Shown here piece after piece: positions 3,493 through 22,833 of a DNA stretch of 64,000 nt (the stretch's first letter is position 1; the number at the start of each line of letters is the position of its first letter). Origin of the DNA: a virus (lineage: Duplodnaviria; Caudoviricetes); IMG/VR virus record IMGVR_UViG_3300044614_002073, positions 1 through 64,000 of that record, one strand, 5' to 3'. Position numbers and translations under genes: made by a program. The notes beneath the pieces were generated by a model. The model made no database searches and was not told the origin of the DNA. It saw only the letters and a program-made list of their open reading frames with translations.

Positions 3493-4239
3493 TTGAGAAA
3501 AAATAATAAAAATGCCAAAAAACGCAAGAATGCTATAGACTTAACTGATTCTCTTTTGGAACCACAAAATCAACCAACTTATGGTTTCAAAAATAGACTT
3601 AAGCCCCGTAGTAAAAATCAACAAGAATACATAAGAACAGCAGCGGAGAACAACATCACTTTATGTCATGGTGTAGCGGGTAGTGGTAAAACACACATCG
3701 CTATAGGTATGGCAATCGAATACTTATTGGACAAGAAAGTACAAAAAATAGTCATCACCAGACCAGTAGTAGAATCCGGAGAAAAAATCGGATATTTACC
3801 TGGAACTGCTGAGGAAAAATTGCATCCTTATTTGTTACCAATATTAGATGAAATTAACTATTTTATATCGTCAGGAGAATATAATTCACACAAAACTAAT
3901 AATCGTATAGAAGTAGTGCCTCTTGGTCTAATGAGAGGTAGAAATTTCCATAATACTTTTATTGTTGCCGATGAATGTCAAAATGCATCTTATGATCAAC
4001 TTAAGATGTTATTAACAAGAATTGGTATGAATAGCAAAATGATCTTGACTGGAGATACATCTCAATCAGATTTAATGAAGAATGCTCGTGGAGGATTTGA
4101 AACTATTACTGATGCTTTAACAGAGTTAGAGGGTGTAGGCATTGCCAAACTTGATTATGGCGATATTGTCAGACATCCGATCATAGAGAAAATTTTAGTG
4201 AGACTAGATAGTTTAGAAAACTATGGAAAGAAAACATAA
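3493..4239 (+). CDS. phoH: PhoH-like ATPase
   Basis: GVAGSGKT, TRPVVE.GEKIGYLPG, MRGRNF, DECQN, LTRIG, GD..QSDL, DIVRHP. TTG start. Confidence 0.95.
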   Translation: MRKNNKNAKKRKNAIDLTDSLLEPQNQPTYGFKNRLKPRSKNQQEYIRTAAENNITLCHGVAGSGKTHIAIGMAIEYLLDKKVQKIVITRPVVESGEKIGYLPGTAEEKLHPYLLPILDEINYFISSGEYNSHKTNNRIEVVPLGLMRGRNFHNTFIVADECQNASYDQLKMLLTRIGMNSKMILTGDTSQSDLMKNARGGFETITDALTELEGVGIAKLDYGDIVRHPIIEKILVRLDSLENYGKKT

Positions 4240-4804
4240 ACGATGCCTAATACTAAATGCTGATTACTCATTATTGACTATTATAGATTGGCAAAAGGCC
4301 ATTATATTATCCATGCGTAATCAGGAGAATAGTAAGAAAGGTATAGAAATACTAGATTTTTACAAAGATGATTATATAGCTGGTATCAACAATAAAAAAT
4401 ACCCTATACCAGCAGTAGCTAAAACTGTTAGGTACTTAAAAGTATTTAATCATCAGGTAAAATTTTCTAGGAAAAATCTATTCATTAGAGATGGATTCAC
4501 TTGCCAATATTGTGGTTGTCGTAAAGACATGGCCGAACTAACATACGACCATGTAATACCTAAATCTTCTTGGTCGAATGACAGAGGATCACCAACTTCT
4601 TGGACTAATATTGTAACAGCATGTATCCCTTGTAATAGAAAAAAAGGAAATAAAACGCCAGCACAAGCTAATATGCCAATAAAGAATTTGCCAATTATTC
4701 CAAAAAGAAATGAAAAATACTTGCCTGTAGCCGCCTACCTTTCTAACATAAAGCACAGTATTCCAGAAGAGTGGATTTACTATATTCCCGGATCATATCA
4801 ATAA
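4223..4804 (+). CDS. HNH endonuclease (McrA-like)
   Basis: LILNADY, RD.FTCQYCG, TYDHVIP, W.NIVTAC..CN..KGNKTP. Confidence 0.92.
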   Translation: MERKHKRCLILNADYSLLTIIDWQKAIILSMRNQENSKKGIEILDFYKDDYIAGINNKKYPIPAVAKTVRYLKVFNHQVKFSRKNLFIRDGFTCQYCGCRKDMAELTYDHVIPKSSWSNDRGSPTSWTNIVTACIPCNRKKGNKTPAQANMPIKNLPIIPKRNEKYLPVAAYLSNIKHSIPEEWIYYIPGSYQ

Positions 4805-9002: not shown

Positions 9003-9434
9003 ATGATAACAGACAATATTATAGCATCCTTATCTGATGAAGAAAGAGAATTGCTACTAAAACTATATACTAAGATAGCGGAAAATGAACATAAGCGTCA
9101 CAACAGTGACGATGATATATATTTTGAACCAACAGAGAAAACACCATCTCAAGAGGAAATACTCCAACAAATAGAACATGATTCTATTCATCAATATGAT
9201 GAGATTAAAAATGGTGAAGCGATAATGGACACGCCTGTAGAATTGATCTTTAATGTAAATGGTGTTGTATTTGAAAAAAATACTTTAGGTGAGATTATCA
9301 GACAAAGCGATCTTTTCGTCAAGAGTTATCATGTTCCACTTGTAAACCACAATCAGATTAAAGAATATATAGAAAAGTTTTTCCAAAAATTTGCATCAAC
9401 GCTAGAAGCCACAGCAAAGGAAGTAATTGAGTGA
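9003..9434 (+). CDS. Hypothetical acidic protein
   Basis: 143 aa ORF coupled to dnaB (GTGA overlap). Confidence 0.55.
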   Translation: MITDNIIASLSDEERELLLKLYTKIAENEHKRHNSDDDIYFEPTEKTPSQEEILQQIEHDSIHQYDEIKNGEAIMDTPVELIFNVNGVVFEKNTLGEIIRQSDLFVKSYHVPLVNHNQIKEYIEKFFQKFASTLEATAKEVIE

Positions 9435-10897
9435 CAATGATTTTATCGGATCCAGCAGCGGAAAGAGCCGTCTTGGCTGGTGTTTGTGCCTATTCTGATA
9501 AGGCATATTACGAAGTCTCGGATATTTTATCTGAGACTTGTTTCACAATTGATAGCAATGTTATCATCTATAAGTGCTTAAAGCATTTATTTGACAAAGG
9601 ACACTCTACAAATATAGACATAGCATGTATAATGTCCGCTGCTCAAGAATTGGATTTGTCTCATATTCTTTCCAAAAAGGAAGAAGCGCAGCATTTAAAA
9701 GCTATTATTGACTTCCCAGTAAGTCTGGATAACATTAGAAAGTTTGCTGCTAAAGTTAAAAAGCTAGATGTAGCCAGACTATTGCATAAGCAGCTTAAGC
9801 TGGCTCAAGAGAGAATATTAGATATAAATGGATCAGAAAGTATAACGGCAATTTTGGGTATTGCCGAAGATACTGTCTTTGATTTTACCAATAAATTAAA
9901 CGATAGTGAAAGTGGTCCAGAAGCTATCGGTAATAATCTAGAAGAGTACATTCAATATCTAGAAGAACATAAAGTAGACCAAGTTGGCATATCTACAGGA
10001 TTTAACGTTTATGATCAGGCCATCGGTGGAGGATTAAGAAAAAGCACAGTTAATGTGATTGCCGCAAGACCAAAAGTAGGTAAAACTCTTTTATCAGACA
10101 ACATGGGATTTCATATTGCGAGCAAGGGTATACCAGTATTGAACATGGACACCGAAATGACAAAAGAAGATCATTTGCACAGAGTTTTGGCAATGATGAC
10201 CGAATTAGAAATTAATTCTATTGAAACTGGTGCGTTTAGTCAAAATACCGATAAAAAAGCAAAGATTACAGATGCAGTAGAACAACTTAAGAAAACTAAA
10301 TTGTACTACAAATCTATTGCCGGCAAGTCTTTTGAAGAACAATTAGCAATAATGCGTAGATGGGTTATTAGAGAAGTTGGGCTAAACCCAGATGGGTCGG
10401 CCAAAGATTGTGTCATATTTTATGATTATCTTAAACTCATGGATTCAGCAGGCATATCTCAGGACATGAAAGAATATCAAGTCTTAGGCTTCATGATGAC
10501 TTCTCTGCATAATTTTGCAACGAAATACAAGGTACCAATTGTTGCATTCGTTCAGTTAAATAGGGATGGAATTACCAAGGAAAGCACGGACACCGCATCT
10601 GGATCAGATAGAATTATTTGGCTATGCAGCAACTTTACAATCTTTAAGAGGAAAAGCGATGAGGAAATAGCTGAAGATGGTCCGAGCAATGGTAATCGTA
10701 AACTAGTTCCTCTTATTAGCCGACACGGCGGAGGATTAGACGATAATGACTATATCAATTGTCATATGAAAGGTTGGTGTGCCAAGATAACAGAAGGCAA
10801 AACAAGACTAGAACTAATTAATAAAATTGAGAAGAAATCTACAAACGGATTTATTATAGATGAAAACAATGACAATCAAGAAATCAGCTTCGTATAA
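9431..10897 (+). CDS. dnaB: DnaB-like replicative helicase
   Basis: AERAVL N-terminus, ISTGF...D...GG, AARPKVGKT, EM, DYL.LM, QLNR. Confidence 0.93.
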   Translation: MTMILSDPAAERAVLAGVCAYSDKAYYEVSDILSETCFTIDSNVIIYKCLKHLFDKGHSTNIDIACIMSAAQELDLSHILSKKEEAQHLKAIIDFPVSLDNIRKFAAKVKKLDVARLLHKQLKLAQERILDINGSESITAILGIAEDTVFDFTNKLNDSESGPEAIGNNLEEYIQYLEEHKVDQVGISTGFNVYDQAIGGGLRKSTVNVIAARPKVGKTLLSDNMGFHIASKGIPVLNMDTEMTKEDHLHRVLAMMTELEINSIETGAFSQNTDKKAKITDAVEQLKKTKLYYKSIAGKSFEEQLAIMRRWVIREVGLNPDGSAKDCVIFYDYLKLMDSAGISQDMKEYQVLGFMMTSLHNFATKYKVPIVAFVQLNRDGITKESTDTASGSDRIIWLCSNFTIFKRKSDEEIAEDGPSNGNRKLVPLISRHGGGLDDNDYINCHMKGWCAKITEGKTRLELINKIEKKSTNGFIIDENNDNQEISFV

Positions 10898-12017
10898 TCA
10901 AAACGAGCTAAAAGCTATTTGTGACCAACTGTGCGACAATATTGAGGTTTTACTTGACTCTTTGGGTGTTGAGTACAAACAAAATCACAAGATGATATCA
11001 ATGTCATGCCCTATCCATGGCGGGGATAATATTTCTGCTTTAAATCTATACCCTGACGGAGACAGATACAGGGGAAATTGGAAATGTCGAACTCATGGAT
11101 GTGAGAATACTTTTAAATCATCTGTTATAGGATTTATTAGAGGGGTATTGTCACACAATGAATTTGGATGGATGAAAGAAGGAGACTCTACCGTATCCTT
11201 CAATGATGCGCTGATCTTTGCTAGAAAAATTCTAAAAGATAACTTTAAAGATATAAAGATATCAAAAACAGCCATAGAAAAAAATAACTTTACGGCATTC
11301 GTATCTAATATATCTCCTAATAGTCAGGACGACATCCCAAAGATATCTCGTCAAAGCATTAGAAAAAGCCTAACGATTCCCGCTCAATATTTTATTGATA
11401 GAGGGTTTCATACCGATATCTTGAATAAATATGATGTTGGTCTATGTGATAAATCAGGAAAAGAAATGTTTGGAAGAGCCGTTGCTCCTATCTACGATAT
11501 AGATCATCAATATATGGTAGGTTGCACAGGACGTAGTATATTCAATAAGTGTGATAAATGTAGTAGTTATCATAATGACACAGAAGCGTGTCCGTCTGAA
11601 GAAAATAGATGGAAATACTCTAAGTGGAAGCATAATTTTGGCTTTAAAACACAAAACCATTTGTATAATCTATGGTATGCTAAAGACTATATTAAAGATA
11701 CCAAAACTATTATTGTTGTAGAGAGTCCTGGCAATGTTTGGAAACTGGAAGAATGTGGGTTCAGAAACAGCGTAGCCATCTTCGGATCTTCTATGTCTGA
11801 TACTCAAAAAATGCTTATTGATTCTAGTGGTGCCATGCAAATGATTCTTTTATTAGATAACGATGAGGCTGGACAAAAGGCCACATCCATTATATCCAAA
11901 AAATGCTCTAGAACATATAATATATATACTCCTGCATTTGTTACCACAGATATTGCTGATATGTCAACAGAGACTATCATAACAGAATTAACCAAATTAA
12001 CTGAAAGATTTATATGA
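10860..12017 (+). CDS. dnaG: DNA primase (CHC2 zinc finger plus Toprim)
   Basis: CPIH...WKCRTHGC, YF..RG, P.YD....VG..GR, Toprim VVES and DND. Confidence 0.85.
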   Translation: MKTMTIKKSASYNQNELKAICDQLCDNIEVLLDSLGVEYKQNHKMISMSCPIHGGDNISALNLYPDGDRYRGNWKCRTHGCENTFKSSVIGFIRGVLSHNEFGWMKEGDSTVSFNDALIFARKILKDNFKDIKISKTAIEKNNFTAFVSNISPNSQDDIPKISRQSIRKSLTIPAQYFIDRGFHTDILNKYDVGLCDKSGKEMFGRAVAPIYDIDHQYMVGCTGRSIFNKCDKCSSYHNDTEACPSEENRWKYSKWKHNFGFKTQNHLYNLWYAKDYIKDTKTIIVVESPGNVWKLEECGFRNSVAIFGSSMSDTQKMLIDSSGAMQMILLLDNDEAGQKATSIISKKCSRTYNIYTPAFVTTDIADMSTETIITELTKLTERFI

Positions 12018-12751
12018 CCAAGATTATAGGATTTTCTGGCAAAAAACAATCTGGAAAGAATACTTGTGCCAATTTTATTTATAGTTTATATTTGGTTAAT
12101 CAAAATCTATGTAAAAAGGCAAAAATTAATAATGTTGGTAGTATAGATATACTAAAACATAATGATGCAAATATCACAGTAGATATCAACGAATACCATG
12201 TCAAGCCCAACACGTCTGTTTTGGATCAAGAGGTTCTTGGTATGGTTGAACAGCTTAATAGCTATGTCAAATTATATAGCTTTGCAGACATCTTAAAGCA
12301 AGATATATGCATGAAATTGTTAGGATTAACCTATCAGCAGTGTTATGGATCGGATATTGAAAAAAATGAAATTACAAATGTGCATTGGGAGAATAAATTC
12401 TTAACCGCTAGAGAAGTCATGCAAGTGGTTGGTACTGATATTTTTAGATCAATGAGATCAAATATTTGGCCCGATACAACTATAGAAAAGATTCTTAATG
12501 ACAATACAGAATTAGCCATTATCACAGATTGTAGATTCCCTAATGAGGTTGATGCTATCAAACAGGCCGGTGGCTTGGTAATTAGGTTAACCAGAGATAA
12601 GCTTAATTCTTCTGATCATTTGAGCGAGATTGCATTGGATAAAAATAGATATGATTGGAGTAATTTTGACCACGTTGTAGATAATGACAATATGACAATC
12701 TATGATCAGTCTATGACGATACTAAATCTATTCCAACAAATTTTCGCATGA
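12014..12751 (+). CDS. Deoxynucleoside monophosphate kinase
   Basis: IIGFSGKKQSGKNT, SFAD.LK, RE.MQ..GT, ITDCRFPNE, H.SE. Confidence 0.88.
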   Translation: MTKIIGFSGKKQSGKNTCANFIYSLYLVNQNLCKKAKINNVGSIDILKHNDANITVDINEYHVKPNTSVLDQEVLGMVEQLNSYVKLYSFADILKQDICMKLLGLTYQQCYGSDIEKNEITNVHWENKFLTAREVMQVVGTDIFRSMRSNIWPDTTIEKILNDNTELAIITDCRFPNEVDAIKQAGGLVIRLTRDKLNSSDHLSEIALDKNRYDWSNFDHVVDNDNMTIYDQSMTILNLFQQIFA

Positions 12752-12759
12752 GGTGACAT

Positions 12760-13803
12760 ATTATCATTACTTATTTTCGTAGTTCGTCTTATAATGCGCA
12801 CTCTATGTGCGAACAGCAATACTTTTTAGAATATGTATTGGGGTGGAGAGGTCCGTCTGGACAAAAGGCAGATAAGGGGACTATAGTACATAAAGTGCTA
12901 GAGATATTAGCAGTTATTAAACAAGCACAACAGAATAAAAACGATACCATAACAGACGATCTACTTGGTAATATATCTACTAAAAAATATGATTTGGAAG
13001 AAATTATCAGACAAGTATACGATTATTACATTAATAAATGTCAACACCATAAGTGGTCAACTAAAGATTTTGACGACTGTAGAAAATGGGTATACAAGGC
13101 TATAGAATATAATAACGGAATGTTTGATCCTAGAAATAGGACTATACTCTGTCCAGAGCAGCATTTTGATATCGCTATTAATAAAAAGTGGGCTAAGTAC
13201 AATTACTTGATAGACGGTAAAAATATTGAAGGAACGCTGGGCCTCAAGGGCACTATTGATCTGATAACAAAAGTAGATGATAAAACACTAGAAATAGTAG
13301 ACTGGAAAACAGGACGCAGGCTAGATTGGGCTACTGGTCAAGAAAAGACTCAAGAAAAACTTGAAAATGATCCCCAGCTAAGAATATATCATTATGCTGC
13401 ACAACAATTATATCCTGAATATGATCATATCATTGTTACTATTTTCTTTATAAATGATGGTGGACCATTCAGTATTCTATTTGATAAATCAGATTTGGCA
13501 CAAACAGAAACAATGTTAAAAAATAAGTTTGAAACAATAAAAAATACTCGTAAGCCACTCTTGAAAAAAAGCTGGATGTGTAGTAAACTGTGTCACTTCG
13601 GCAAAACTACTTTTGAAAATACTCATATTCATCCGCTAGAAGAATATAGAGACAATCAAACATGCTCTAAAAATACAGTCATGACTAAATGCGAACAAGT
13701 AAAACACGACATAGAGCTTAAGGGCATGGACATAGTAGTGGAAGAATATTCAGCACCAGGACATTCTATAGGTCATTATAAAGCCCCAGGAAGTACAGAA
13801 TAA
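12760..13803 (+). CDS. PD-(D/E)XK exonuclease (RecB/AddB/Cas4-like)
   Basis: RSSSYN..SMC..QY, GT.VH..LE, E..F, G.IDL, IVDWKTG, QL..Y and C-terminal Cys cluster. Start placed at ATT 12760; first ATG is 12805. Confidence 0.85.
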   Translation: MIITYFRSSSYNAHSMCEQQYFLEYVLGWRGPSGQKADKGTIVHKVLEILAVIKQAQQNKNDTITDDLLGNISTKKYDLEEIIRQVYDYYINKCQHHKWSTKDFDDCRKWVYKAIEYNNGMFDPRNRTILCPEQHFDIAINKKWAKYNYLIDGKNIEGTLGLKGTIDLITKVDDKTLEIVDWKTGRRLDWATGQEKTQEKLENDPQLRIYHYAAQQLYPEYDHIIVTIFFINDGGPFSILFDKSDLAQTETMLKNKFETIKNTRKPLLKKSWMCSKLCHFGKTTFENTHIHPLEEYRDNQTCSKNTVMTKCEQVKHDIELKGMDIVVEEYSAPGHSIGHYKAPGSTE

Positions 13804-13804
13804 T

Positions 13805-15679
13805 ATGAAGAGTTATGTTCCCTTACACGTTCACAGTCACTATAGTCTGTTAGACGGTCTGTCTAAACCAGATCAAATAGCTCAAAGATGTTTGAACATA
13901 GGAGCAACATCATGTGCTCTTACTGATCATGGATCTATATCTGGTGCTGTTGCTTTTTATCAGTCAATGAAAAAGAGCAATATTAAGCCAATTTTAGGAT
14001 GCGAATTGTATATTTGTCAAGACTTATCAACGAATCAAAGCAAAGAAAATGGCTCTTTATCGCATATGCTGGTTTTGGCCAAAAACCAGACAGGATGGAA
14101 AAACCTCATCAGTTTAGTTTCTGCATCCAACGACCCCAGCCGCTTTTATCGCAAGCCCAGGACCAGCATTAATGAGCTTGAGGAGATGGATACGTCGGGC
14201 TTGATCTGTATTACTGGACACTTAGGATCAAACTTGGCCAATACGATTGATAATGGCTCAGATTTGAGTACAGCCTCAAACCTAATTGAACAGTTAAAGT
14301 CTATTTTTGGTAATCAAAATGTATTCCTAGAAGCCCAATTAATGGACAAAAACCACATACCATTTCAGATTACCTTAACAGATATTGTGCGTAATTTGGC
14401 TAAAAAACATAATCTAAAAGTTATAGCAACTCCTGATGCTCACTATGCTAATAAAGAGGATGCTATAGATCAAAGAGTCCTGTTATGCAACACACTAAAG
14501 ACTACATTTCCAGACATCAATAAGAAGCTACTCAATAATGAAGATGTAGCACTTGGCTGTTTTTTCAAGTCTGATAATTTTTATATCTTATCAGATGAAG
14601 AAATGAGACACCTACATACTGAAGAAGAATTATATAATACAAGACTAGTATCAGATATGTGCGAAGACTATAACATTCTTAATAGGCCACAACTGCCTCG
14701 CTTTATAGACAATGAAGACGAGTATCTGAGACAATTATGTAGAGAGGGCTGGAGAAAGAGAGGTTTTACAAAGATACCAGAATCCGAGCAACAAATTTAT
14801 ATAGATCGCATTAAACAAGAGCTTTCTGTATTACAGGGTGCTGGATTATCTGGATATTTTTTGATTGTACAAGACATCGTGAATTATATTAGAACAAATA
14901 ATTGGCTACCTGGTCCTGGACGTGGATCTGCTGCTGGGTGTTTGGTTTCTTATTTATTGGAAATCACTAATATTGATCCAATCAAATATGATTTACTATT
15001 TGAAAGATTCTACAATGCTGGTCGTAACAGCGCAGATAGAATTTCTATGCCAGATATTGATATTGATGTACCAATGACAGCTAGAGATAATGTAATCGGA
15101 TATATCAAAAATAAGTATGGCGCAAACAAGGTTTCTCAAATGATTACCTTTAATACGATGAAAGGTAGAGGAGCTTTAAAAGAAGTTCTAAGAGTTTATG
15201 GCGGTTTGACATACGAGGAAATGAATCAGATTACCAAGCATATACCTGATGAAGCTAAAATTGCAGATGATCTTCAAGAAATGAAAGACGATAGAGGAGA
15301 ATCATCCATTATACAATGGTCATTGGAAAATATGCCAGAGAAATTTAAAGAATGGTGCAAGATAGAGGAAGACGGATCAATAACAGGACTATTTGCAAAA
15401 AGATTTGAGCAGGCTATCCGTTTAGAGGGTACAAAATCAAACCAATCTAAACACGCGGCAGGCATCGCTATTTCGGCCCATAATTTGGACGGTATGTGTC
15501 CTATGGTGTATGATTCTAAGACAGGTAATAGCATTGCTGGTATGGAAATGCAAGATTTAGAATCTCTTGGAATTGTTAAATTTGATATATTAGGTATTGG
15601 TATGTTAGACAAAATTATGTGTATTCAATCTCTTTTAAAGGGTAAAAATTATGCCGGAATATCAAACAACATTTGCTAA
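13805..15679 (+). CDS. dnaE: DNA polymerase III alpha subunit, N-terminal part (PHP, palm, thumb)
   Basis: LHVHSHYSLLDG, TDHG, GRGSAAG, LLFERF, PDIDID, HAAG, KFDILG. Stops ~28 aa after the third catalytic Asp. Confidence 0.93.
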   Translation: MKSYVPLHVHSHYSLLDGLSKPDQIAQRCLNIGATSCALTDHGSISGAVAFYQSMKKSNIKPILGCELYICQDLSTNQSKENGSLSHMLVLAKNQTGWKNLISLVSASNDPSRFYRKPRTSINELEEMDTSGLICITGHLGSNLANTIDNGSDLSTASNLIEQLKSIFGNQNVFLEAQLMDKNHIPFQITLTDIVRNLAKKHNLKVIATPDAHYANKEDAIDQRVLLCNTLKTTFPDINKKLLNNEDVALGCFFKSDNFYILSDEEMRHLHTEEELYNTRLVSDMCEDYNILNRPQLPRFIDNEDEYLRQLCREGWRKRGFTKIPESEQQIYIDRIKQELSVLQGAGLSGYFLIVQDIVNYIRTNNWLPGPGRGSAAGCLVSYLLEITNIDPIKYDLLFERFYNAGRNSADRISMPDIDIDVPMTARDNVIGYIKNKYGANKVSQMITFNTMKGRGALKEVLRVYGGLTYEEMNQITKHIPDEAKIADDLQEMKDDRGESSIIQWSLENMPEKFKEWCKIEEDGSITGLFAKRFEQAIRLEGTKSNQSKHAAGIAISAHNLDGMCPMVYDSKTGNSIAGMEMQDLESLGIVKFDILGIGMLDKIMCIQSLLKGKNYAGISNNIC

Positions 15680-15833
15680 TATTGCAACGGACACCGTATT
15701 TGTTTATAATAATGTAGAGTATAGGAAGATGCCTGAGGTTAGGGTATCTTGCTGTCGTAAACTTAATGCTGTCGTAGTAAGTACTGGCGAACAAACCTTC
15801 ATCCAAGATAATGCTACTATTACAGTAAAATAA
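15651..15833 (+). CDS. Small hypothetical protein (60 aa, CC motif)
   Basis: ATG after AAGGG; resembles an internal segment of the next ORF. Confidence 0.65.
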   Translation: MPEYQTTFANIATDTVFVYNNVEYRKMPEVRVSCCRKLNAVVVSTGEQTFIQDNATITVK

Positions 15834-15859
15834 TTGCCTAATAGACATAGCAGGACATA

Positions 15860-18322
15860 ATGGGACATATACTAGAATTAGATAGTGGAAATCTATACTC
15901 AACCGGAGACAACCAATACGGACAGTTGGGCATAGGCAATACTGACGATACTCCACTAAGATTTAAAGTATTAACCGGTATAGAACAGTATGATAATATC
16001 CCATGGATAGATGCTAAGGTAGGCCAAAACCATTCTATAGCCATCAAACAGGATAAGAGCATATGGATGTGGGGCTCTAATATTGAAGGTCAAATGGGAC
16101 TACCTCAAGATATCAAATACTTGACCAGTCCAACCAAAAAAGATTTTCCTATTAATCCAGACAAAGATATAGATATTAATATAGGATTATATTTTACTAT
16201 TATATCCCAAACCAATGAAAAATCTTATGCTGTAGGAACATTTCAAAATTTAGGTTCGCAATTTGTATCTATTAATAGGGAAATAGTACCCCTATACTTG
16301 AGAGATCCACAAGGAGAATCTTTTATAAGTGTTGATGCTGGACCAAAAACTATTATCGCTAGAATTGGTAGCGGTAGTCAGGTTTTTTCCGATTGGTCGG
16401 GGGACTTAATAGAAAGAGATTTTATAACATTTGACCAACTATATGTTGGAGACTATTTTACTCTTTATGAACCATTTAATCGCGAGAGATTAATTTACAA
16501 AAAAGTTGATAAATATCAACAAGAAGCAGGATGCTGTACTTTTAATGCTATCTGTATGCATAGAAAATACAGAGAGCTTATTAGTCAAGTGGAAGCGGTT
16601 TATCCGGAAACCAAAGTTTTTGTTCTTAGTGATCTGTTATCAGAGGAAAACAGACCCAAAATAGTTTCAGCACAAGATCAATATAATGTAGATTTTGTTT
16701 TCTATTCAGCTTTAGCTGGTATAGACTATATGTCTGGTGCATATCCAAATAAGATTGATCCGTTCACTTTAAAAGGATTGTTTTTAGCTACTGGCACTAA
16801 AAACTTATTGGACGTCATATTGTTTGGAGGATTGCATTTTACAGATAATCCACAAGATCAGTACAATACCAAAACTATTGTTGAAAAAATTAACGCTAAA
16901 GAAGTTTTCCAAAAAGGTAGTTTTCCAGAATACTTCGAAGAAGTAGGTGGATATAAGATATTACCTGGAGATAGTTACACTTTACATCCAGAATTTGTTA
17001 ACGATTATTATCGAGCCCAGCCACTATATTATTTCAAAATTAATGGAAATAAAGAACCAAGAAAATATATTACTGCTAATAGATACAATTTACCATATAC
17101 TGGATTGTCTAAATCTTATTATGAATTAGAATCTGAGGATAATCTATTTGATTTATTTTTTAATCGCAGTAACGGTTTCTTTTATAATAAGGTTAATCCC
17201 CAAGATCCAACAGATCCAATTATAACGAGAGAAGCAGTTGATCTGCCAGCAGATGAAAACAATAGAGTAACCGTTGAGGATTTATTTTATACTCCTCCAT
17301 ACTTGTTAAAGTATGAATTATCACAAGGTAAAAGTAGTTTTTCTCAAAATTTTGTCGATCCATATGTAAGAGTCCAAGCTCAACAGCCAGAAGACCCCGT
17401 ATTGGATTGTGGAGCTTATACGGCTGGAGCACAAGCTATTCCTGGTGAGCAAACAGATTGGCTATATGCTTGCTATGCTAGGGCAGACAATAATACTGCT
17501 GCTGGAAGAAGATATATCACATACAATATCGGACCTTATGCCGATACGCTTATAAAATACTTTTTAGATCCAAAAACTGATCCAGAGTTAACAAAACAAT
17601 TATTTGGTTTTACAAAAATAGAATTAGAAGAACTGTATGATGCCATTAGAAATGGTAAGCCAGACACTAGCAATAACCCAGCAGATGCTCAAAAATATGA
17701 AAAAGTTACTGGTGATTCTTTTAGAATGCTAAGGGATGTATTCAATACACAATTTCAAGGGAAAATATACATCGATGCTAAAACTAATAAGCCAATTATT
17801 AGGACATCGGCAAATACTCTCTCTACTATGCCATATAGTGAAATGATTAACGGTCTCATTACATATACATCTAGAGGGCCAGTTTATTATCATCACTACA
17901 TTAAGATACCAAATAGAATTATTTGTTATACGTATTTTACTAAAACTTTAACCACGGACGGCGATAGGTCAGTCTATAGATATGAGTCTGACAGACAAAC
18001 ATTAATAGTGCCTATAGATGTAACAGGGAAAATTGTTCCCGGCACAACCACTATACGTTATTGGGTCAGAAATCCGACATCAACAGATACTGAAGATAAA
18101 CTGTCTCAGCAAGCTCTTTCTATTCGCATAGTATCTGTAACCTACGACAAAGAGCTGAATATAACAAAACTAAGGCTAGACAAACCCATGACAGCCCCTT
18201 ACCTTATAGGATGTACCAGAGTTCCTGATCCTAGATATGGTGTGGTTTGCGGACCAAGATTGTATATAGACATTGATTACAACGGTTATTCTTTTGACAT
18301 GATTGAAGCATTACAAAGCTAA
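15860..18322 (+). CDS. Large mosaic protein with N-terminal RCC1-like repeats
   Basis: LYSTGDNQYGQLGIG, GQNHSIAIKQDKSIWMWGSNIEGQMG. RBS AGGA. Confidence 0.7.
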   Translation: MGHILELDSGNLYSTGDNQYGQLGIGNTDDTPLRFKVLTGIEQYDNIPWIDAKVGQNHSIAIKQDKSIWMWGSNIEGQMGLPQDIKYLTSPTKKDFPINPDKDIDINIGLYFTIISQTNEKSYAVGTFQNLGSQFVSINREIVPLYLRDPQGESFISVDAGPKTIIARIGSGSQVFSDWSGDLIERDFITFDQLYVGDYFTLYEPFNRERLIYKKVDKYQQEAGCCTFNAICMHRKYRELISQVEAVYPETKVFVLSDLLSEENRPKIVSAQDQYNVDFVFYSALAGIDYMSGAYPNKIDPFTLKGLFLATGTKNLLDVILFGGLHFTDNPQDQYNTKTIVEKINAKEVFQKGSFPEYFEEVGGYKILPGDSYTLHPEFVNDYYRAQPLYYFKINGNKEPRKYITANRYNLPYTGLSKSYYELESEDNLFDLFFNRSNGFFYNKVNPQDPTDPIITREAVDLPADENNRVTVEDLFYTPPYLLKYELSQGKSSFSQNFVDPYVRVQAQQPEDPVLDCGAYTAGAQAIPGEQTDWLYACYARADNNTAAGRRYITYNIGPYADTLIKYFLDPKTDPELTKQLFGFTKIELEELYDAIRNGKPDTSNNPADAQKYEKVTGDSFRMLRDVFNTQFQGKIYIDAKTNKPIIRTSANTLSTMPYSEMINGLITYTSRGPVYYHHYIKIPNRIICYTYFTKTLTTDGDRSVYRYESDRQTLIVPIDVTGKIVPGTTTIRYWVRNPTSTDTEDKLSQQALSIRIVSVTYDKELNITKLRLDKPMTAPYLIGCTRVPDPRYGVVCGPRLYIDIDYNGYSFDMIEALQS

Positions 18323-18330
18323 GGATAAAA

Positions 18331-19017
18331 ATGAAAAATAAAATTTGTGTTTTTGATTTTGAGACTGATGGTATCGATACCGGCACCTGTAGTCCAGTAC
18401 AAATAGCAGCAGTAATAGTTGACCCATATAATTTATCCATTATGAAAGATTCAGAGTTTAATATTACAGTTAGGCCGGAAAAACTAGAAATAGATAAGGA
18501 CTACAAATATGATGACTCAGACATATTGGATTTTCATGCAAAAGTAAGGGGTTGTTCCAAAGAAGATATACTAAAATCTTGGCAGGAAGCAATGTCTCAA
18601 CAACAGGCATGGTCTATGTTTTCTCAATACTTGGAAATTTACCATCTAAACAGAAGCAAAAAAAGTATGTTTTCGGCTCCTGTAGCCGCTGGGTATAATA
18701 TACTCAGGTTTGATATGAAAATTGTAGAAAGATTTAGTCGTAAACTTGGATATGTTAATAATGAAAATACATCAAGTTTATTTTTCCCAAGAGATACTTT
18801 AGATATAATGAATTTATTATTCTACTGGTTTGAAAGTAATGACGATGTAAAAAATCTAACATTAGACAATATAAGAGACTATATGGGTATAGACAAGACC
18901 AACGCTCACGATGCTCTGAAAGATGTTAGAGATTGTGCAGAATTACTTATTCGATTTTTAAGACTGCATAGGAATTTATCCAAAAAAATTAAATTTAGGG
19001 ACTCATTTGTTTCATGA
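18331..19017 (+). CDS. DEDDh 3'-5' exonuclease (DnaQ/epsilon-like)
   Basis: VFDFETDG, QIAA, GYN...FD, AHDAL.DV. Confidence 0.9.
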   Translation: MKNKICVFDFETDGIDTGTCSPVQIAAVIVDPYNLSIMKDSEFNITVRPEKLEIDKDYKYDDSDILDFHAKVRGCSKEDILKSWQEAMSQQQAWSMFSQYLEIYHLNRSKKSMFSAPVAAGYNILRFDMKIVERFSRKLGYVNNENTSSLFFPRDTLDIMNLLFYWFESNDDVKNLTLDNIRDYMGIDKTNAHDALKDVRDCAELLIRFLRLHRNLSKKIKFRDSFVS

Positions 19018-20636
19018 CTAGATATTATCAATTTGATTGCGGTTGTAAGTTTCCAGTATTAGAATCAGACGAGCAACTTGACTTTGACATCAATAATATT
19101 CCTTTGGATTGTGATAAAACATGGAATTTAATCTCTGATGGCAATACCAAGGGATGTTTCCAGTTAGAGTCTAGATTGGGCCAATCAATGGCTAAAAAAC
19201 TTAAACCAGAGAATATAGAGCAGCTAGCAGGTCTTATCAGCATTATGCGACCCGGTTGCTTAGAAGCCATTAGAGAGGGTAAAAGTGTTAGTAACCATTT
19301 TATAGATAGAAAAAATGGTAAAGAAAGTATAGACTATTATAATCCAAATCTCAAAAGCATATTAGAGACAACATATGGAGAAATGGTTTATCAAGAACAG
19401 TCTATGCAAATAGCACAAGAGTTAGCCGGATTTGATTTGCAAGAAGCCGATATGTTACGCAAGGCCATCGGTAAAAAGAAGCCAGAAGAAATGGCAAAGT
19501 TGAGAACGGTGTTCATCAATGGCTGTAAAAACAAAAACATAGTCAATGAAGATGAAGCAGAAGAGATCTTCGGTTGGATCGAAAAAAGTCAAAGATATTC
19601 ATTCAACAAAAGCCATGCCGTTAGTTATGCAATTAATGGCTATTTGTCTGCATATGCAAAAGCCCATTTCCCACAGATATTTTTTGTATCATATTTGCGT
19701 TTTGCAAAAGACAAGATAGATCCTCATCAAGAAATCAAAGAATTAATACATAATGCTAATTCTATGAATATTGATGTACTGTTGCCTAGATTTAAATTTA
19801 TGAATAAAGAATTTGAGATTATTAATGATCAAATATATTTTGGAATAACTAATATTAAGGGTGTTGGGGAATCGGTATATGAATCTATTAATAAACTTAG
19901 ACTAGATTTAGCGAATAAAAATATTACCGGAATCATTCCCATTTTTTGCAGAGTTTTGGCTAATGTTAACAGTGCAGCGGCTAAGGCTATCATATCTGTT
20001 GGAGCATTTGATGAATATTCTATTCCTAGAACAGAATTATTATTTTATTTGGACATGCTGAATAAATTAACTAAAAAAGAACTAGAACAAATATCCTTAC
20101 TTAATATTGATATTGCAAGTATAAAATTTAGAGACGTTTTTATTAGCTTATTAAGCAAAGGCAAGGTTACAAAAAAACGCCAAATAGTCATTCAAGAATT
20201 TATTAACAGTATTGATAGGCCTCCCTATTCCTTAAAGGACAATATGCATTGGATAGCAGAAACCGAAGCGGCTTTGCTCGGCATACCACTAACTTGCACC
20301 AAAACAGACTCTTATATGCAAAATTATGAGTCTAACTTAATAACATGTAAAGAGTTTCAAAATGTTGATAGTGGTAAAAAAATTGCTATCATGGGAGAAA
20401 TTAGTAGACTTAGCACCATTAAAACAAAACAGGGTAAAAACAAAGGTGCTAACATGTCTTTCTTAGAGATATTCGATAGTTCTGGTATCTTGGATTCGGT
20501 GGTCGTATTTCCAGAACAATATATGCAATTTAAGGATATCCTGAAAGAAAACGAAGTTCTGGTGTTTATTGGAACCAAATCAAAAAAATCCGGCAGTGGC
20601 CTGATCGTAGAAAAATGTTTTGTTCCAGAGTCTTGA
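19014..20636 (+). CDS. dnaE: DNA polymerase III alpha subunit, C-terminal part (fingers, HhH, OB)
   Basis: IPLD..KTW.LI..G.T.GCFQLES, RPG, TYG..VYQEQ, ADMLRKAIGKK, YSFNKSHA, FG...IKGVG and C-terminal OB fold. ATGA-coupled to the exonuclease gene. Confidence 0.93.
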   Translation: MTRYYQFDCGCKFPVLESDEQLDFDINNIPLDCDKTWNLISDGNTKGCFQLESRLGQSMAKKLKPENIEQLAGLISIMRPGCLEAIREGKSVSNHFIDRKNGKESIDYYNPNLKSILETTYGEMVYQEQSMQIAQELAGFDLQEADMLRKAIGKKKPEEMAKLRTVFINGCKNKNIVNEDEAEEIFGWIEKSQRYSFNKSHAVSYAINGYLSAYAKAHFPQIFFVSYLRFAKDKIDPHQEIKELIHNANSMNIDVLLPRFKFMNKEFEIINDQIYFGITNIKGVGESVYESINKLRLDLANKNITGIIPIFCRVLANVNSAAAKAIISVGAFDEYSIPRTELLFYLDMLNKLTKKELEQISLLNIDIASIKFRDVFISLLSKGKVTKKRQIVIQEFINSIDRPPYSLKDNMHWIAETEAALLGIPLTCTKTDSYMQNYESNLITCKEFQNVDSGKKIAIMGEISRLSTIKTKQGKNKGANMSFLEIFDSSGILDSVVVFPEQYMQFKDILKENEVLVFIGTKSKKSGSGLIVEKCFVPES

Positions 20637-20663
20637 CACCCACCGCGTTCTTTTTATTATAAC
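20633..20663 (+). promoter_or_regulatory. Sigma70-type promoter upstream of ssb
   Basis: TTGACA (20633-20638, overlapping the dnaE-C stop), 16 nt spacer, TATTAT (20655-20660). RBS GAGGAG before the ATG at 20711. Confidence 0.65.
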
Positions 20664-20710
20664 CCAGTGGTCGGTTTTGAATTTAGTAACTTTATTTTGA
20701 GGAGATTCGT

Positions 20711-21094
20711 ATGAATATTGTAATCTTGCGTGGAAATTTAACAAGAGACCCTGAGTTAAGGCACATCACAGCCTCTGATAAAAAGACAGCAGTTGTTAAC
20801 TTTACTGTTGCTGTATCTAGAGAATTTAACAGGGCAAATGGAAGCAAGGACAAGGTAACATCTTTCATCTCTTGTGAAGCATGGGACAGTGGTGCAGAAA
20901 CTATTGCAGCTTCCTTCCAGAAGGGAGATCTTGTACTAGTTGAAGGTACTCTTAGGAATGATTCTTGGGAGAAGGACGGCGTTAAGCACAGTACTCTAAA
21001 GGTTAGAGTAAATAACTTTTCCAAGATTACAAAGATTTCTAAAAAGGCAGCAGCAGGAGTTTCATCGGAGGAAGAGGAAACGGTTGCCTTCTGA
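20711..21094 (+). CDS. ssb: Single-stranded DNA-binding protein
   Basis: N.VIL.GNLTRDPELR, F.VAV.R, KG..VLVEG.L...SWE, acidic tail EEEETVAF. Confidence 0.95.
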   Translation: MNIVILRGNLTRDPELRHITASDKKTAVVNFTVAVSREFNRANGSKDKVTSFISCEAWDSGAETIAASFQKGDLVLVEGTLRNDSWEKDGVKHSTLKVRVNNFSKITKISKKAAAGVSSEEEETVAF

Positions 21095-21115
21095 TTTAAC
21101 AAGAAGTTGATTTTG

Positions 21116-21150
21116 GTAGAGTTGGGGGTTAACAGCCCCCAATTCTACTT
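21116..21150 (+). terminator. Strong stem-loop after ssb (terminator or mRNA-stabilising hairpin)
   Basis: GTAGAGTTGGGGGT-taaca-GCCCCCAATTCTAC, a 14 bp stem with two G-U pairs. Only TT follows. Confidence 0.6.
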
Positions 21151-21165
21151 AACCCCGGAAGTATT

Positions 21166-22833
21166 ATGTCTAAACCAAAAATTCTAATGTGTTCAGAGGC
21201 TAGTTTTTTGCACTCTGGATATAGTACGTATGCCAAAGAACTATTAAATAGGCTCTATAAATCTGGCAAATATGAAATAGCTGAATTTGCCTCATATGGG
21301 ATATTAGGAGATCCAAGAGACCGAGATATACCTTGGACATATTACCCAAATGCGGTAAAAGAAAACGATCCAAGATTTGGTGAATACAATAATTCTGGAG
21401 AAAACGCTTTCGGTAAATGGCGATTCGAAAGAGTTGTTTTAGATTTCATGCCAGATATAGTATTCGATATTAGAGATTTTTGGATGAACTCTTATCAAAA
21501 ATTCTCTGTTCTTAGACAGTTTTATAATTGGGTTGTGATGCCCACAGTAGATTCCAGACCTCAGCAAGAAGAATGGCTAGATGTTTATATGGACGCCGAT
21601 GCTGTTCTATCATATTCTGATTGGGGCGGTCAGGTTTTACAAGATCAAACAAACAACAAAATAAAATATGCAGGATCGGCCTCTCCTGCTGTAGATTTAG
21701 ATGTTTTCAAGCCTATGGACATGAAAGAAGCCAGATCTCAATTGCGTATTCCAGAATCAATGAAAATTATTGGTTCAGTAATGCGAAACCAAAAAAGAAA
21801 ATTGATTCCAGAATTAATGCAGTCTGTTAGGGGTCTGCTGGACCAATTCGAATTGCAAAACAAAGAGTTGGGACAGGATGTTTATCTATATTTGCACACT
21901 AGTTATCCAGATGCTGGGTGGAACCTACCAAATCTACTCAAAGAACATAGCATGGGTAAAAGAGTTTTGTTTACATATGTATGCAAAAATTGTGGTAAAA
22001 TACATGCACATACTTTTAATCATTCCATTAAAAACTGTCCTCATTGTGGTCAAAAAACTGCTGTGTTTCCGTCAGTATCCGAGGGTGTTTCTACACAGCA
22101 GCTAAGTTCGATATACAATTCTTTTGATATTTATGTTCAATATGCTATATGCGAAGGCTTTGGAATGCCACAAGTCGAGGCTGGCGCCTGTGGGGTTCCT
22201 ATAGTCTCCATAGATTACAGTGCCATGTCGGATATCGTTAGACTATTAGATGGATATATCGTACAGCCTCAAACTTTTTTTAAAGAATTAGAAACAGAAG
22301 CATATAGAGTTTATCCAAATAACGATCAACTAATATACCATCTATGGACCTTCTTCAATCTGTCGAAAGAAGAACAATTGCAAAAAAGAGAAAAGGTTAG
22401 AGAGCTAACAGAAACTCATTTCAATTGGGATGCAACTGCCAATAAGTGGATGAAAGTTTTTGATGAAATTTTAGCCAATCCTCATAGAAAACACTGGTCA
22501 AATATACCTCCAAATTATTTAGCAAAATTAGATATAAATGAATTCAGAAATTTCAATAAATCTTATGAAGCATTCCAATATATTTGTTGTGACAGAATGG
22601 GCTCACCACAGCTACTAAATAATATGATGGGTCTTAATCTACTAAAATACAGTGATTATGGCTATATATCTAATGGTATGAACATTAAGAAATTTAATTT
22701 TCAAAATCTTGTTGAGGTTTATAACAAGTATATGGAAAATCAAAATCTAGTTAAGTACGCCATTGCCAATTCTCATGTTCTTAATGGCGAAGATTATATT
22801 AGGTATGCACACGAGAGACAGGCGAATAAATGA
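21166..22833 (+). CDS. Glycosyltransferase family 4 (GT-B) with zinc-ribbon insertion
   Basis: SGY..Y..EL, RNQ.RK.IP.L, YLYLHT, EGFGMPQVEAGACGVP; internal CKNC...CPHC. Confidence 0.88.
   Translation: MSKPKILMCSEASFLHSGYSTYAKELLNRLYKSGKYEIAEFASYGILGDPRDRDIPWTYYPNAVKENDPRFGEYNNSGENAFGKWRFERVVLDFMPDIVFDIRDFWMNSYQKFSVLRQFYNWVVMPTVDSRPQQEEWLDVYMDADAVLSYSDWGGQVLQDQTNNKIKYAGSASPAVDLDVFKPMDMKEARSQLRIPESMKIIGSVMRNQKRKLIPELMQSVRGLLDQFELQNKELGQDVYLYLHTSYPDAGWNLPNLLKEHSMGKRVLFTYVCKNCGKIHAHTFNHSIKNCPHCGQKTAVFPSVSEGVSTQQLSSIYNSFDIYVQYAICEGFGMPQVEAGACGVPIVSIDYSAMSDIVRLLDGYIVQPQTFFKELETEAYRVYPNNDQLIYHLWTFFNLSKEEQLQKREKVRELTETHFNWDATANKWMKVFDEILANPHRKHWSNIPPNYLAKLDINEFRNFNKSYEAFQYICCDRMGSPQLLNNMMGLNLLKYSDYGYISNGMNIKKFNFQNLVEVYNKYMENQNLVKYAIANSHVLNGEDYIRYAHERQANK

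Follow-up and report, generated by a model that had tools for sequence, protein, structure and literature searches.

The DNA analyzed here (the window) comprises the 64,000 nucleotides at the start of a 74.5-kb virus record of IMG/VR (IMGVR_UViG_3300044614_002073; Caudoviricetes) that is rated ~51% complete. Near-identical DNA occurs in lake-water metagenome runs. Between positions 13,805 and 20,636, five open reading frames (ORFs) follow one another on the plus strand (Table 1). The first and the last encode complementary parts of the α subunit of DNA polymerase III (Pol III α, DnaE), called the N-half and the C-half here. The three genes between them encode a 60-amino acid (aa) protein, an 820-aa protein with RCC1 repeats, and a DnaQ-like exonuclease. 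The spacings between the five ORFs are −29, 26, 8, and −4 nt, and the last of these is an ATGA overlap of the exonuclease stop codon with the C-half start codon. The features that define DnaE, namely, the PHP domain, a palm with three catalytic Asp residues, and fingers with helix-hairpin-helix (HhH) and OB domains, are all present, but not on a continuous polypeptide.

In Pfam searches, the N-half matched PHP (PF02811, E = 1.2e-37, residues 7–178) and DNA_pol3_alpha (PF07733, 8.8e-73), and the C-half matched DNA_pol3_finger (PF17657, 1.7e-49) and HHH_6 (PF14579, 2e-8); the OB match of the C-half (PF01336, 1.1e-4) was weak and under its cut-off. On phrog_405, a profile of full-length phage DnaE with 1190 positions, the N-half covered positions 41–615 and the C-half 622–1075. 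Alignment with the Escherichia coli α structure placed N-half residues 4–604 on residues 6–565 and C-half residues 23–346 on residues 583–902, and on the Thermus aquaticus (Taq) enzyme the N-half reached up to residue 626 and the C-half began from 637. The break corresponds to residues 566–582 of E. coli α, a loop after the last palm helix. Assuming that the palm of the E. coli enzyme extends to ~560 and that its fingers start from ~561, this is the palm/fingers boundary. The N-half ends ~8 residues past the last palm helix in most relatives and has a 12-aa tail overlapping the next gene in the window. An AlphaFold 2 (AF2) model of the C-half (mean predicted local distance difference test score, pLDDT, 84.8) matched Pol III α in Foldseek (1e-23), and ~527 columns were aligned with full-length α. 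The C-half is without the tau-binding C-terminal domain.

The aspartates of the PDIDID and KFD motifs (D417, D419, and D594), which align to the palm of Taq and E. coli α, are invariant in all 56 aligned N-halves. The YSFNKSH motif is intact within the C-half, where R194, Y195, F197, N198, S200, and H201 are invariant in 56 C-halves, as are the fingers and other polymerase motifs. An earlier interpretation made from the letters alone (the sequence-only reading) had described a 624-aa N-half with the PHP domain and all three catalytic Asp residues, and a 540-aa C-half downstream that is coupled by ATGA to a DnaQ-like gene. It had also held that the halves are complementary and non-overlapping, and that the break lies at the palm/fingers junction, not at the FNKSH site used in cyanobacteria. 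The ORFs, the Pfam and phrog_405 matches, the residue invariance, and the alignments with the E. coli and Taq enzymes, the last of which it had named as a check, agree with each of these points.

Table 1. Genes of the divided dnaE locus and of the surrounding replication module in the window
Feature	Position	Strand	Remarks
DnaB-like helicase	9431-10897	+	upstream replication module
Toprim primase	10860-12017	+	upstream replication module
dNMP kinase	12014-12751	+	syntenic in related loci
PD-(D/E)XK nuclease	12805-13803	+	syntenic in related loci
DnaE N-half, 624 aa	13805..15679	+	PHP, palm, thumb; stop TAA at 15677-15679
60-aa small protein gene (s60)	15651..15833	+	SH3-like barrel predicted
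820-aa RCC1 protein gene	15860..18322	+	two RCC1 repeats, residues 8-134
DnaQ-like DEDDh 3'-5' exonuclease, 228 aa	18331..19017	+	
DnaE C-half, 540 aa	19014..20636	+	fingers, HhH (beta-binding), OB
Single-stranded DNA-binding protein (SSB)	20711..21094	+	directly 3' of C-half; syntenic
Glycosyltransferase	21166-22833	+	conserved, after SSB; syntenic

The sequence-only reading had proposed the conservation of the breakpoint in related phages as a further check. Three IMG/VR scans gave 320, 23, and 203 relatives, of which at most 80 per scan were examined; the 181 loci (L numbers) correspond to 176 distinct contigs, five contigs being represented twice. The order N-half stop, exonuclease, and C-half was found in 165 contigs, and another 8 have the same N-half stop in a locus that ends before the C-half, giving 173/176 contigs that share the stop. 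Only L083, L084, and L108 are contiguous at the junction. In the related loci, the two halves are always adjacent and co-oriented, and the gap between them is 683–6823 nt long (median 892 nt). An exhaustive HMMER search of the N-half against 1.84 billion representatives of 50%-identity clusters gave 28,190 matches at E ≤ 1e-3. Among the best 150 of these (39–65% identity), 142 are N-half-only proteins ending at the junction, six are contiguous into the fingers, and for one more the alignment stops at residue 594. In the remaining one (P0136, 762 aa), the N-half runs to the usual junction and is joined to a circularly permuted YpsA (cpYpsA) SLOG domain (PF12694, 1.6e-35). The division of the gene appears to be ancestral to a very large phage assemblage.

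The window is a metagenome assembly of an uncultured virus, which would fit a broken, non-functional polymerase gene or a split created by misassembly. The same break in 173/176 contigs speaks against it. A Logan contig of 20 kb (X1), which may stem from the source sample, shows 0 differences over the whole stretch. The junction of the N-half stop with the 60-aa gene is bridged by contigs of other lake samples (X3, 14669–16239; X5, 15168–15848), as is that of the RCC1 stop with the exonuclease start (X3, 18173–18597; X4, 17776–18346); for the exonuclease/C-half overlap at 19014, no independent bridging piece was found among the matches listed. Joints derived from reads were set aside, as their sides of ≤38 nt at 90% likeness probably belong to other organisms. 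The ORFs of the window contain no frameshifts or internal stops. The ratios of nonsynonymous to synonymous substitution rates (dN/dS) in comparisons with L007, L002, and L003 were 0.03–0.13, well under 1, wherever computable, dS being saturated or uncomputable in 7/12 comparisons; dN was 0.09–0.57 against these loci with dS saturated. The halves are free of decay, as had been suggested from the sequence, and the misassembly that had been named as a ground for refutation was not encountered. Conservation effectively refutes a broken or artefactual gene, to which we attach next to no probability.

Alternatively, the halves may have diverged to separate functions instead of rebuilding one polymerase; the N-half might be, for instance, a nuclease or pyrophosphatase of the PHP type and the C-half a factor that binds DNA or the clamp, with the host Pol III copying the phage DNA. 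In keeping with this explanation, the PHP metal-ligand positions are kept in 44–46 of 56 N-halves including that of the window (H8 and H10 in 36), and a phage sliding clamp (PF00712) was matched in 0/5 records, namely, four relatives rated 100% complete (150–238 kb) and the window's own record. Against it stand the palm Asp triad, which is invariant in 56/56 N-halves, and the invariant fingers and FNKSH motifs of the C-halves. In 12 distant N-halves of the alignment (L085–L103), the PHP ligands are replaced by Tyr, Lys, Ser, Gly, and other residues, and yet the palm Asp residues are invariant; PHP is probably inactive in this distant subclade and possibly active in the subclade of the window, judged from the ligand residues. 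Moreover, the halves occur strictly 1:1 in the complete relatives, each of the four having exactly one palm, one fingers, and one DnaQ-like match, and they are always adjacent and co-oriented. PolA and PolB were found in 0/4 of these genomes each, and on the basis of these complete relatives the two-chain Pol III α is probably the only recognizable DNA polymerase of the phage. We consider divergence of the halves to separate functions improbable.

The halves might instead be rejoined as proteins. A split intein of a cryptic or atypical kind, for which the 60-aa protein could be a third piece, is worth considering because inteins and split inteins are common in the same gene of relatives, the window N-half ends in Cys, and the 60-aa protein is all-β. 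In Pfam searches at E ≤ 0.01, no intein or Hint family was found in the N-half or the C-half, and there was none in the 60-aa protein. The residues that cannot be aligned to single-chain DnaE number only ~8–20 at the N-half end and ~22 at the C-half start. In the alignments of N-half tails and C-half heads, neither a Cys/Ser at position 1 nor a terminal HN followed by Cys/Ser/Thr is conserved. Most relatives have a tail of ~8 aa, and the Cys that ends the N-half of the window is not conserved among them. The fold matches of the 60-aa protein are SH3/Tudor-like with no Hint-domain structure among the matches listed, and the older subclade L085–L104 is split alike without the 60-aa gene or the extra head of the C-half described below. 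An intein joining the halves appears very unlikely.

These negative results carry weight because the same tools detect such elements in relatives. Several relatives have recognizable Hint/intein domains in the N-half or the fingers, and the N-half of L022, L023, and L030 is broken as a split-intein "fractured gene" (GRG|C...HN|SAAGC in L022). In L022 (9950–11170; L023 and L030 alike), the break after GRG is succeeded by a fragment of ~95 aa that begins with Cys, then by a free-standing ORF of 269 aa with a weak Phage_endo_I match, and finally by a fragment ending in HN before SAAGC. L022 and L023 also have an extra 227-aa ORF without a Pfam match between the N-half stop and the 60-aa gene. The proteins P0007 and P0028 end in an intein fragment directly after FNK/FNA.

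The intervening stretch might also be removed from the RNA, by a group I or group II intron or by some other device for splicing or bypass. In favor of this, group I introns interrupt other phage dnaE genes, and the PHP motif of some relatives contains a short insert with a stop, which may be bypassed. In the complete 152-kb relative L016, this is an 8-nt insert (~9008–9015) with a stop and a frame shift in the PHP motif (PLHVHS / HYSLLDG); the PHP motif of the window is without such an insert. Rfam gave 0 matches at E ≤ 1 over 13000–21500 of the window and 0 at E ≤ 0.1 in the related loci L004, L008, and L022. As a control, both gaps in the dnaE of Bacillus phage vB_BceM_WH1 were matched as group I introns (E = 1.5e-5 and 1.8e-4), with scores below the Rfam gathering score. 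Because the ORFs are spaced by only a few nucleotides or overlap, there is no room for a ribozyme; the gap is full of conserved, selected genes and leaves almost no non-coding RNA. Its length (0.7 to 6.8 kb) and content vary with unrelated cargo, and the frames of the exonuclease and C-half genes differ between loci, neither of which fits a splicing or frameshift device. We regard joining at the RNA level as even less probable than an intein. The absence of intein signatures and of an extra Hint segment in the sequence-only reading was borne out, as were the intein and intron scans that it had listed as checks: none was found in the window by tools that detected the control elements.

Because the split is conserved far beyond this phage, a replicase assembled non-covalently from two separate DnaE polypeptides and further subunits is the best explanation of the genes, and we estimate its probability at roughly 80%. 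This largely agrees with the non-covalent two-subunit replicase put forward in the sequence-only reading. Here, we propose how this polymerase may form. The genes lie in one tightly packed block and are probably co-transcribed, and translation of the exonuclease and the C-half would be coupled via the ATGA. The two chains would come together after translation with no covalent bond between them, and the active site would be restored across the palm/fingers interface. The association may use the palm/fingers (and PHP/fingers) interface that is already present in single-chain α. In E. coli, the ε subunit binds the PHP domain of α. The DEDDh exonuclease from the gap is most likely an ε-like subunit of the complex, and in the subclade of the window the SH3-like 60-aa protein and a Cys-rich hairpin of the C-half are candidates for stabilizing or guiding the assembly.

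Several points weigh against this proposal. A fused exonuclease-polymerase or an N-half/60-aa "Rosetta stone" form was looked for and none was found. The roles assigned to the 60-aa protein and the Cys4-hairpin rest on co-occurrence and reflect essentially the history of one clade. No clamp that could confer processivity was matched in the five records, and the statement on the only polymerase rests on relatives, as the record of the window is incomplete.

The exonuclease belongs to the RNase_T/DnaQ-like family (PF00929, 7.1e-10; phrog_192), and its DEDDh residues D9, E11, D128, H193, and D198, which form the Exo I DxE, Exo II D, and Exo III Hx4D motifs, are invariant in 59/59 sequences. In each of the 165 split contigs that extend to the C-half, its gene is found in the gap. 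In the distant subclade L088–L104 (N-half identity ~40–43%), the exonuclease gene mostly abuts the N-half stop. The exonuclease is an old, near-universal tenant of the gap. At E ≤ 1e-10, no exonuclease fused to a longer protein was found, which is weak evidence. The sequence-only reading had named it the probable proofreader, which is plausible in view of the invariant DEDDh residues; however, because the PHP ligands are also kept in the window subclade, either nuclease could proofread here, PHP acting as well as, or instead of, the exonuclease.

The 60-aa gene was detected with a hidden Markov model of 45 sequences in 149/176 contigs. It directly follows the N-half in all 149 and is located between the N-half and the exonuclease in 147, the other 2 loci ending before the exonuclease. 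It was not found on the plus strand of the 26 contigs with an N-half identity below 55%, nor on that of L108, the one close relative with a contiguous junction. Apparent N-half/60-aa fusions or long N-half ORFs (L051, L009, and L076) were rejected as tblastn read-through of the stop codon. In the alignment, F17, C34, and C35 of the protein are invariant, and its dN/dS is 0.03–0.07. It has no Pfam match and no PDB sequence match, and in the Atlas it matched unnamed viral clusters alone. The AF2 model (pLDDT 89.5) has five strands that superpose weakly on SH3-like, Tudor, or KOW-type barrels, and all its fold matches lie within the range of common arrangements. The best Z score was 5.7 for a ribosomal L2 domain, the Foldseek matches had E ≥ 5e-3, and other weak rows were FeoA, eIF5A domain I, and Tudor/KOW. 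From its distribution, the gene is best described as a later, well-fixed addition and a conserved fourth component in the window subclade, not singled out in the sequence-only reading, and its product is likely an accessory or assembly subunit.

A second feature of the window subclade is the head of the C-half, which has 22–25 extra N-terminal residues that are absent in contiguous relatives. In the AF2 model, the head forms a β-hairpin (strands 3–6 and 12–16, pLDDT ~75) with C9-G-C11 in the turn. C9, C11, C33, and C48 co-occur in 42/56 aligned C-halves, and in the C-halves without the head the four positions are mostly replaced jointly (gap, gap, Asp/Asn, and Val/Leu/Ile). This covariation makes it possible that the four Cys residues staple the new N-terminus, perhaps by binding zinc. 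A single metal site formed by Cys-Cys of the 60-aa protein and C-G-C of the C-half was also considered and is weakened by L005/L006 and L081, which keep the 60-aa gene without C-G-C.

The RCC1 gene was found in only 5/176 contigs (L002, L003, L005, L006, and L007). Its product is 58–60% identical to the closest copies (L002/L007), whereas the flanking polymerase genes are 84–87% identical. It shares only the RCC1 repeats with the large minus-strand proteins of the window described below, and its residues 135–820 matched no known family; the best Atlas score was 0.82, which is only a lead, and the structural TM-scores were ≤0.31. The 820-aa RCC1 gene is recent cargo outside the polymerase. The exonuclease, which the sequence-only reading had placed in a three-gene core with the halves, is near-universal in the gap, but the three intervening genes are not one unit.

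Other loci have other cargo. In L004 (10917–17063), the part of the gap upstream of the exonuclease gene holds a metabolic cassette of six genes, whose products are glyoxalase-like, aldehyde dehydrogenase, DDAH-like, class III aminotransferase, UDP-glucose dehydrogenase-like, and saccharopine dehydrogenase-like proteins. In L159 (8793–11254) and L160 (7777–11266), the insertion separates the exonuclease from the C-half and encodes ThyX, an FkbM-type methyltransferase, and DUF1559 proteins whose N-terminus bears a methylation (pilin-like) motif. DUF1559 is typical of Planctomycetota-like bacteria and may hint at the host. L099 carries a gene for a NaeI-like nuclease. Because the cargo varies among relatives, the gap behaves as ordinary intergenic space between independent genes.

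The history of the split was examined with trees of the N-half region (a 156-row FastTree and a 47-row IQ-TREE) with the contiguous dnaE of Chryseobacterium phage MA9V-3 as the root. In these trees, contiguous forms fall into two well-supported clades, P0028/P0008/P0009 and P0030/P0088/P0007/L083, both nested among split forms. The minimum number of state changes is 3, and the starred branches force 3. An approximately unbiased (AU) test rejected the best tree grouping all contiguous rows (Δ log likelihood 108.8, p = 0.0067), with the caveats that the group was chosen after the tree had been seen, that the search was "quick" under LG+G4, and that the single outgroup sits on a long branch. The trees suggest one old fission followed by two re-fusions, which we prefer because recurrent fission of this loop, each time with the same exonuclease gene, would take many more events. 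The gap would have received the exonuclease early, the 60-aa gene later, and the RCC1 gene very recently.

In L083, the exonuclease gene lies immediately upstream of the contiguous dnaE. In L108, it lies downstream of the glycosyltransferase gene, and dnaE is cut near residue 415 around a LAGLIDADG-type ORF. P0008 and P0028 as queries found no viral contigs; the genomic context of one contiguous clade is therefore known from L108 alone. Taken as a whole, a multi-chain C-family core that has been stable in a very large aquatic phage assemblage since one ancient palm/fingers fission, with evolved assembly parts in the window subclade, at least two re-fusions that expelled the exonuclease, and a gap serving as a landing site for cargo, is a tentative scenario that we put forward with clearly less confidence than the two-chain polymerase itself.

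In the surrounding module (Table 1), two glycosyltransferase genes are found downstream of SSB in the window. Over positions 12500–21500, neither promoter-like sites (44 versus 41.5 in shuffles) nor terminator-like sites (4 versus 4.3) were in excess, and both are uninformative on the operon structure. In L108 (4977–7001) and L079 (7061–8998), the PD-(D/E)XK nuclease gene that precedes dnaE is matched as two separate pieces ~0.9 kb apart. Both pieces are in a single 674-aa ORF in L108, which suggests an intein or other in-frame insert there too. In the window, a free-standing HNH endonuclease gene (4223–4804) adjoins a PhoH-like gene, and the pair sits in a nucleotide-metabolism block with dCMP deaminase and ribonucleotide reductase. 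On the minus strand, a row of very large ORFs (2208, 1084, 1425, 682, 1151, 1444, and 900 aa) occupies positions 30687–63847. RCC1 repeats and PHROG matches of the head or tail kind are present in several of these, and several are without any match; they are probably virion or fibre proteins of an uncharacterized large phage.

Pol III α is the textbook single-chain bacterial replicase, with solved structures from E. coli (2HNH/5FKU), T. aquaticus (2HPI/3E0D/4IQJ), and Mycobacterium tuberculosis (5LEW/7PU7). The enzyme of the window has the same domain order (PHP-palm-thumb-fingers-HhH-OB), Asp triad, and fingers motifs as single-chain DnaE but differs in consisting of two polypeptides, in its extra Cys-bearing hairpin, and in lacking the tau-binding C-terminal domain. 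The dnaE of Chryseobacterium phage MA9V-3 spans the junction, and just 8 codons separate its matches to the N-half and the C-half. To our knowledge, the sole natural split of a C-family polymerase described so far is one rejoined by an intein. This is the split DnaE of cyanobacteria, broken at what we take to be the FNKSH site. The locus of the window shares with it a dnaE in two pieces, and differs in that no intein fragments are present at the palm/fingers break and FNKSH is intact. True split-intein sites of relatives lie elsewhere (GRG|SAAG in L022, L023, and L030; FNK|C in P0007 and P0028), and "fractured genes" that combine a split intein with a free-standing endonuclease are described in the available part of Dassa et al. 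2009 (PMC2677866). The dnaE of Bacillus phage vB_BceM_WH1 (gp235/236/237) is likewise annotated as several coding sequences, but its gaps match group I introns and lie elsewhere, whereas the window has no match.

A split archaeal PolB exists in Methanothermobacter. Among phages, T4-like "genes in pieces" are covered in the portion available of one review (PMC2988022). According to it, the two products of the intein-less split gp43 (43A/43B) in Aeromonas phage 25 co-purify and have activity, and phage Aeh1 has a functional split NrdA; further cases are gp43 of Aeromonas phage 44RR and the T4 topoisomerase gp39/gp60. By analogy, the split gp43 and NrdA may serve as precedents for non-covalent assembly. 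As in 43A/43B, adjacent co-oriented cistrons of the window together encode the parts of one polymerase without a splicing element. In contrast, the gp43 splits are of PolB, occur in few phages as far as that review covers them, and have a homing endonuclease or an untranslated spacer, whereas the polymerase of the window is of the C family, is split across a very large assemblage, and has its own exonuclease gene in the gap.

In group 2.2 jumbo phages, a minimal Pol III α occurs as two stand-alone proteins that are predicted to reconstitute the enzyme, as outlined in the accessible part of Iyer et al. 2021 (PMC7824862). As presented there, that version consists of the nucleotidyltransferase and template-binding core alone, encoded by distant genes with PolB alongside, whereas the window has a full-length DnaE in adjacent halves and its complete relatives have no PolA/PolB. 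The portions available of two surveys of bacterial C-family polymerases (PMC3919608 and PMC12926913) mention only the cyanobacterial intein split and frameshift fragments. A palm/fingers split of DnaE with a nested exonuclease was not found described in the literature, subscription journals and supplements aside. Intein-less split phage polymerases are known, and what appears to be new here, from gene comparisons, is the occurrence of such a split in the C family and its very wide distribution.

In thousands of environmental phage sequences, the palm, which holds the catalytic metals, and the fingers, which contact the incoming nucleotide and the template, are encoded on separate chains. Such halves are easily mislabelled as truncated or pseudogenized dnaE. 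If the two chains do form one enzyme, the active site of C-family polymerases can be built across a non-covalent interface, and the palm/fingers loop would offer a natural place to divide the chain when two-part polymerases are engineered, with the phages as a possible supply of split-polymerase parts that assemble by themselves. It would also be a case in which assembly may be guided by small accessory proteins and by a gene order that nests the exonuclease within the polymerase gene. The contiguous forms nested among the split ones would provide a rare test of whether gene fission is reversible, for which this phage assemblage would be a natural model.

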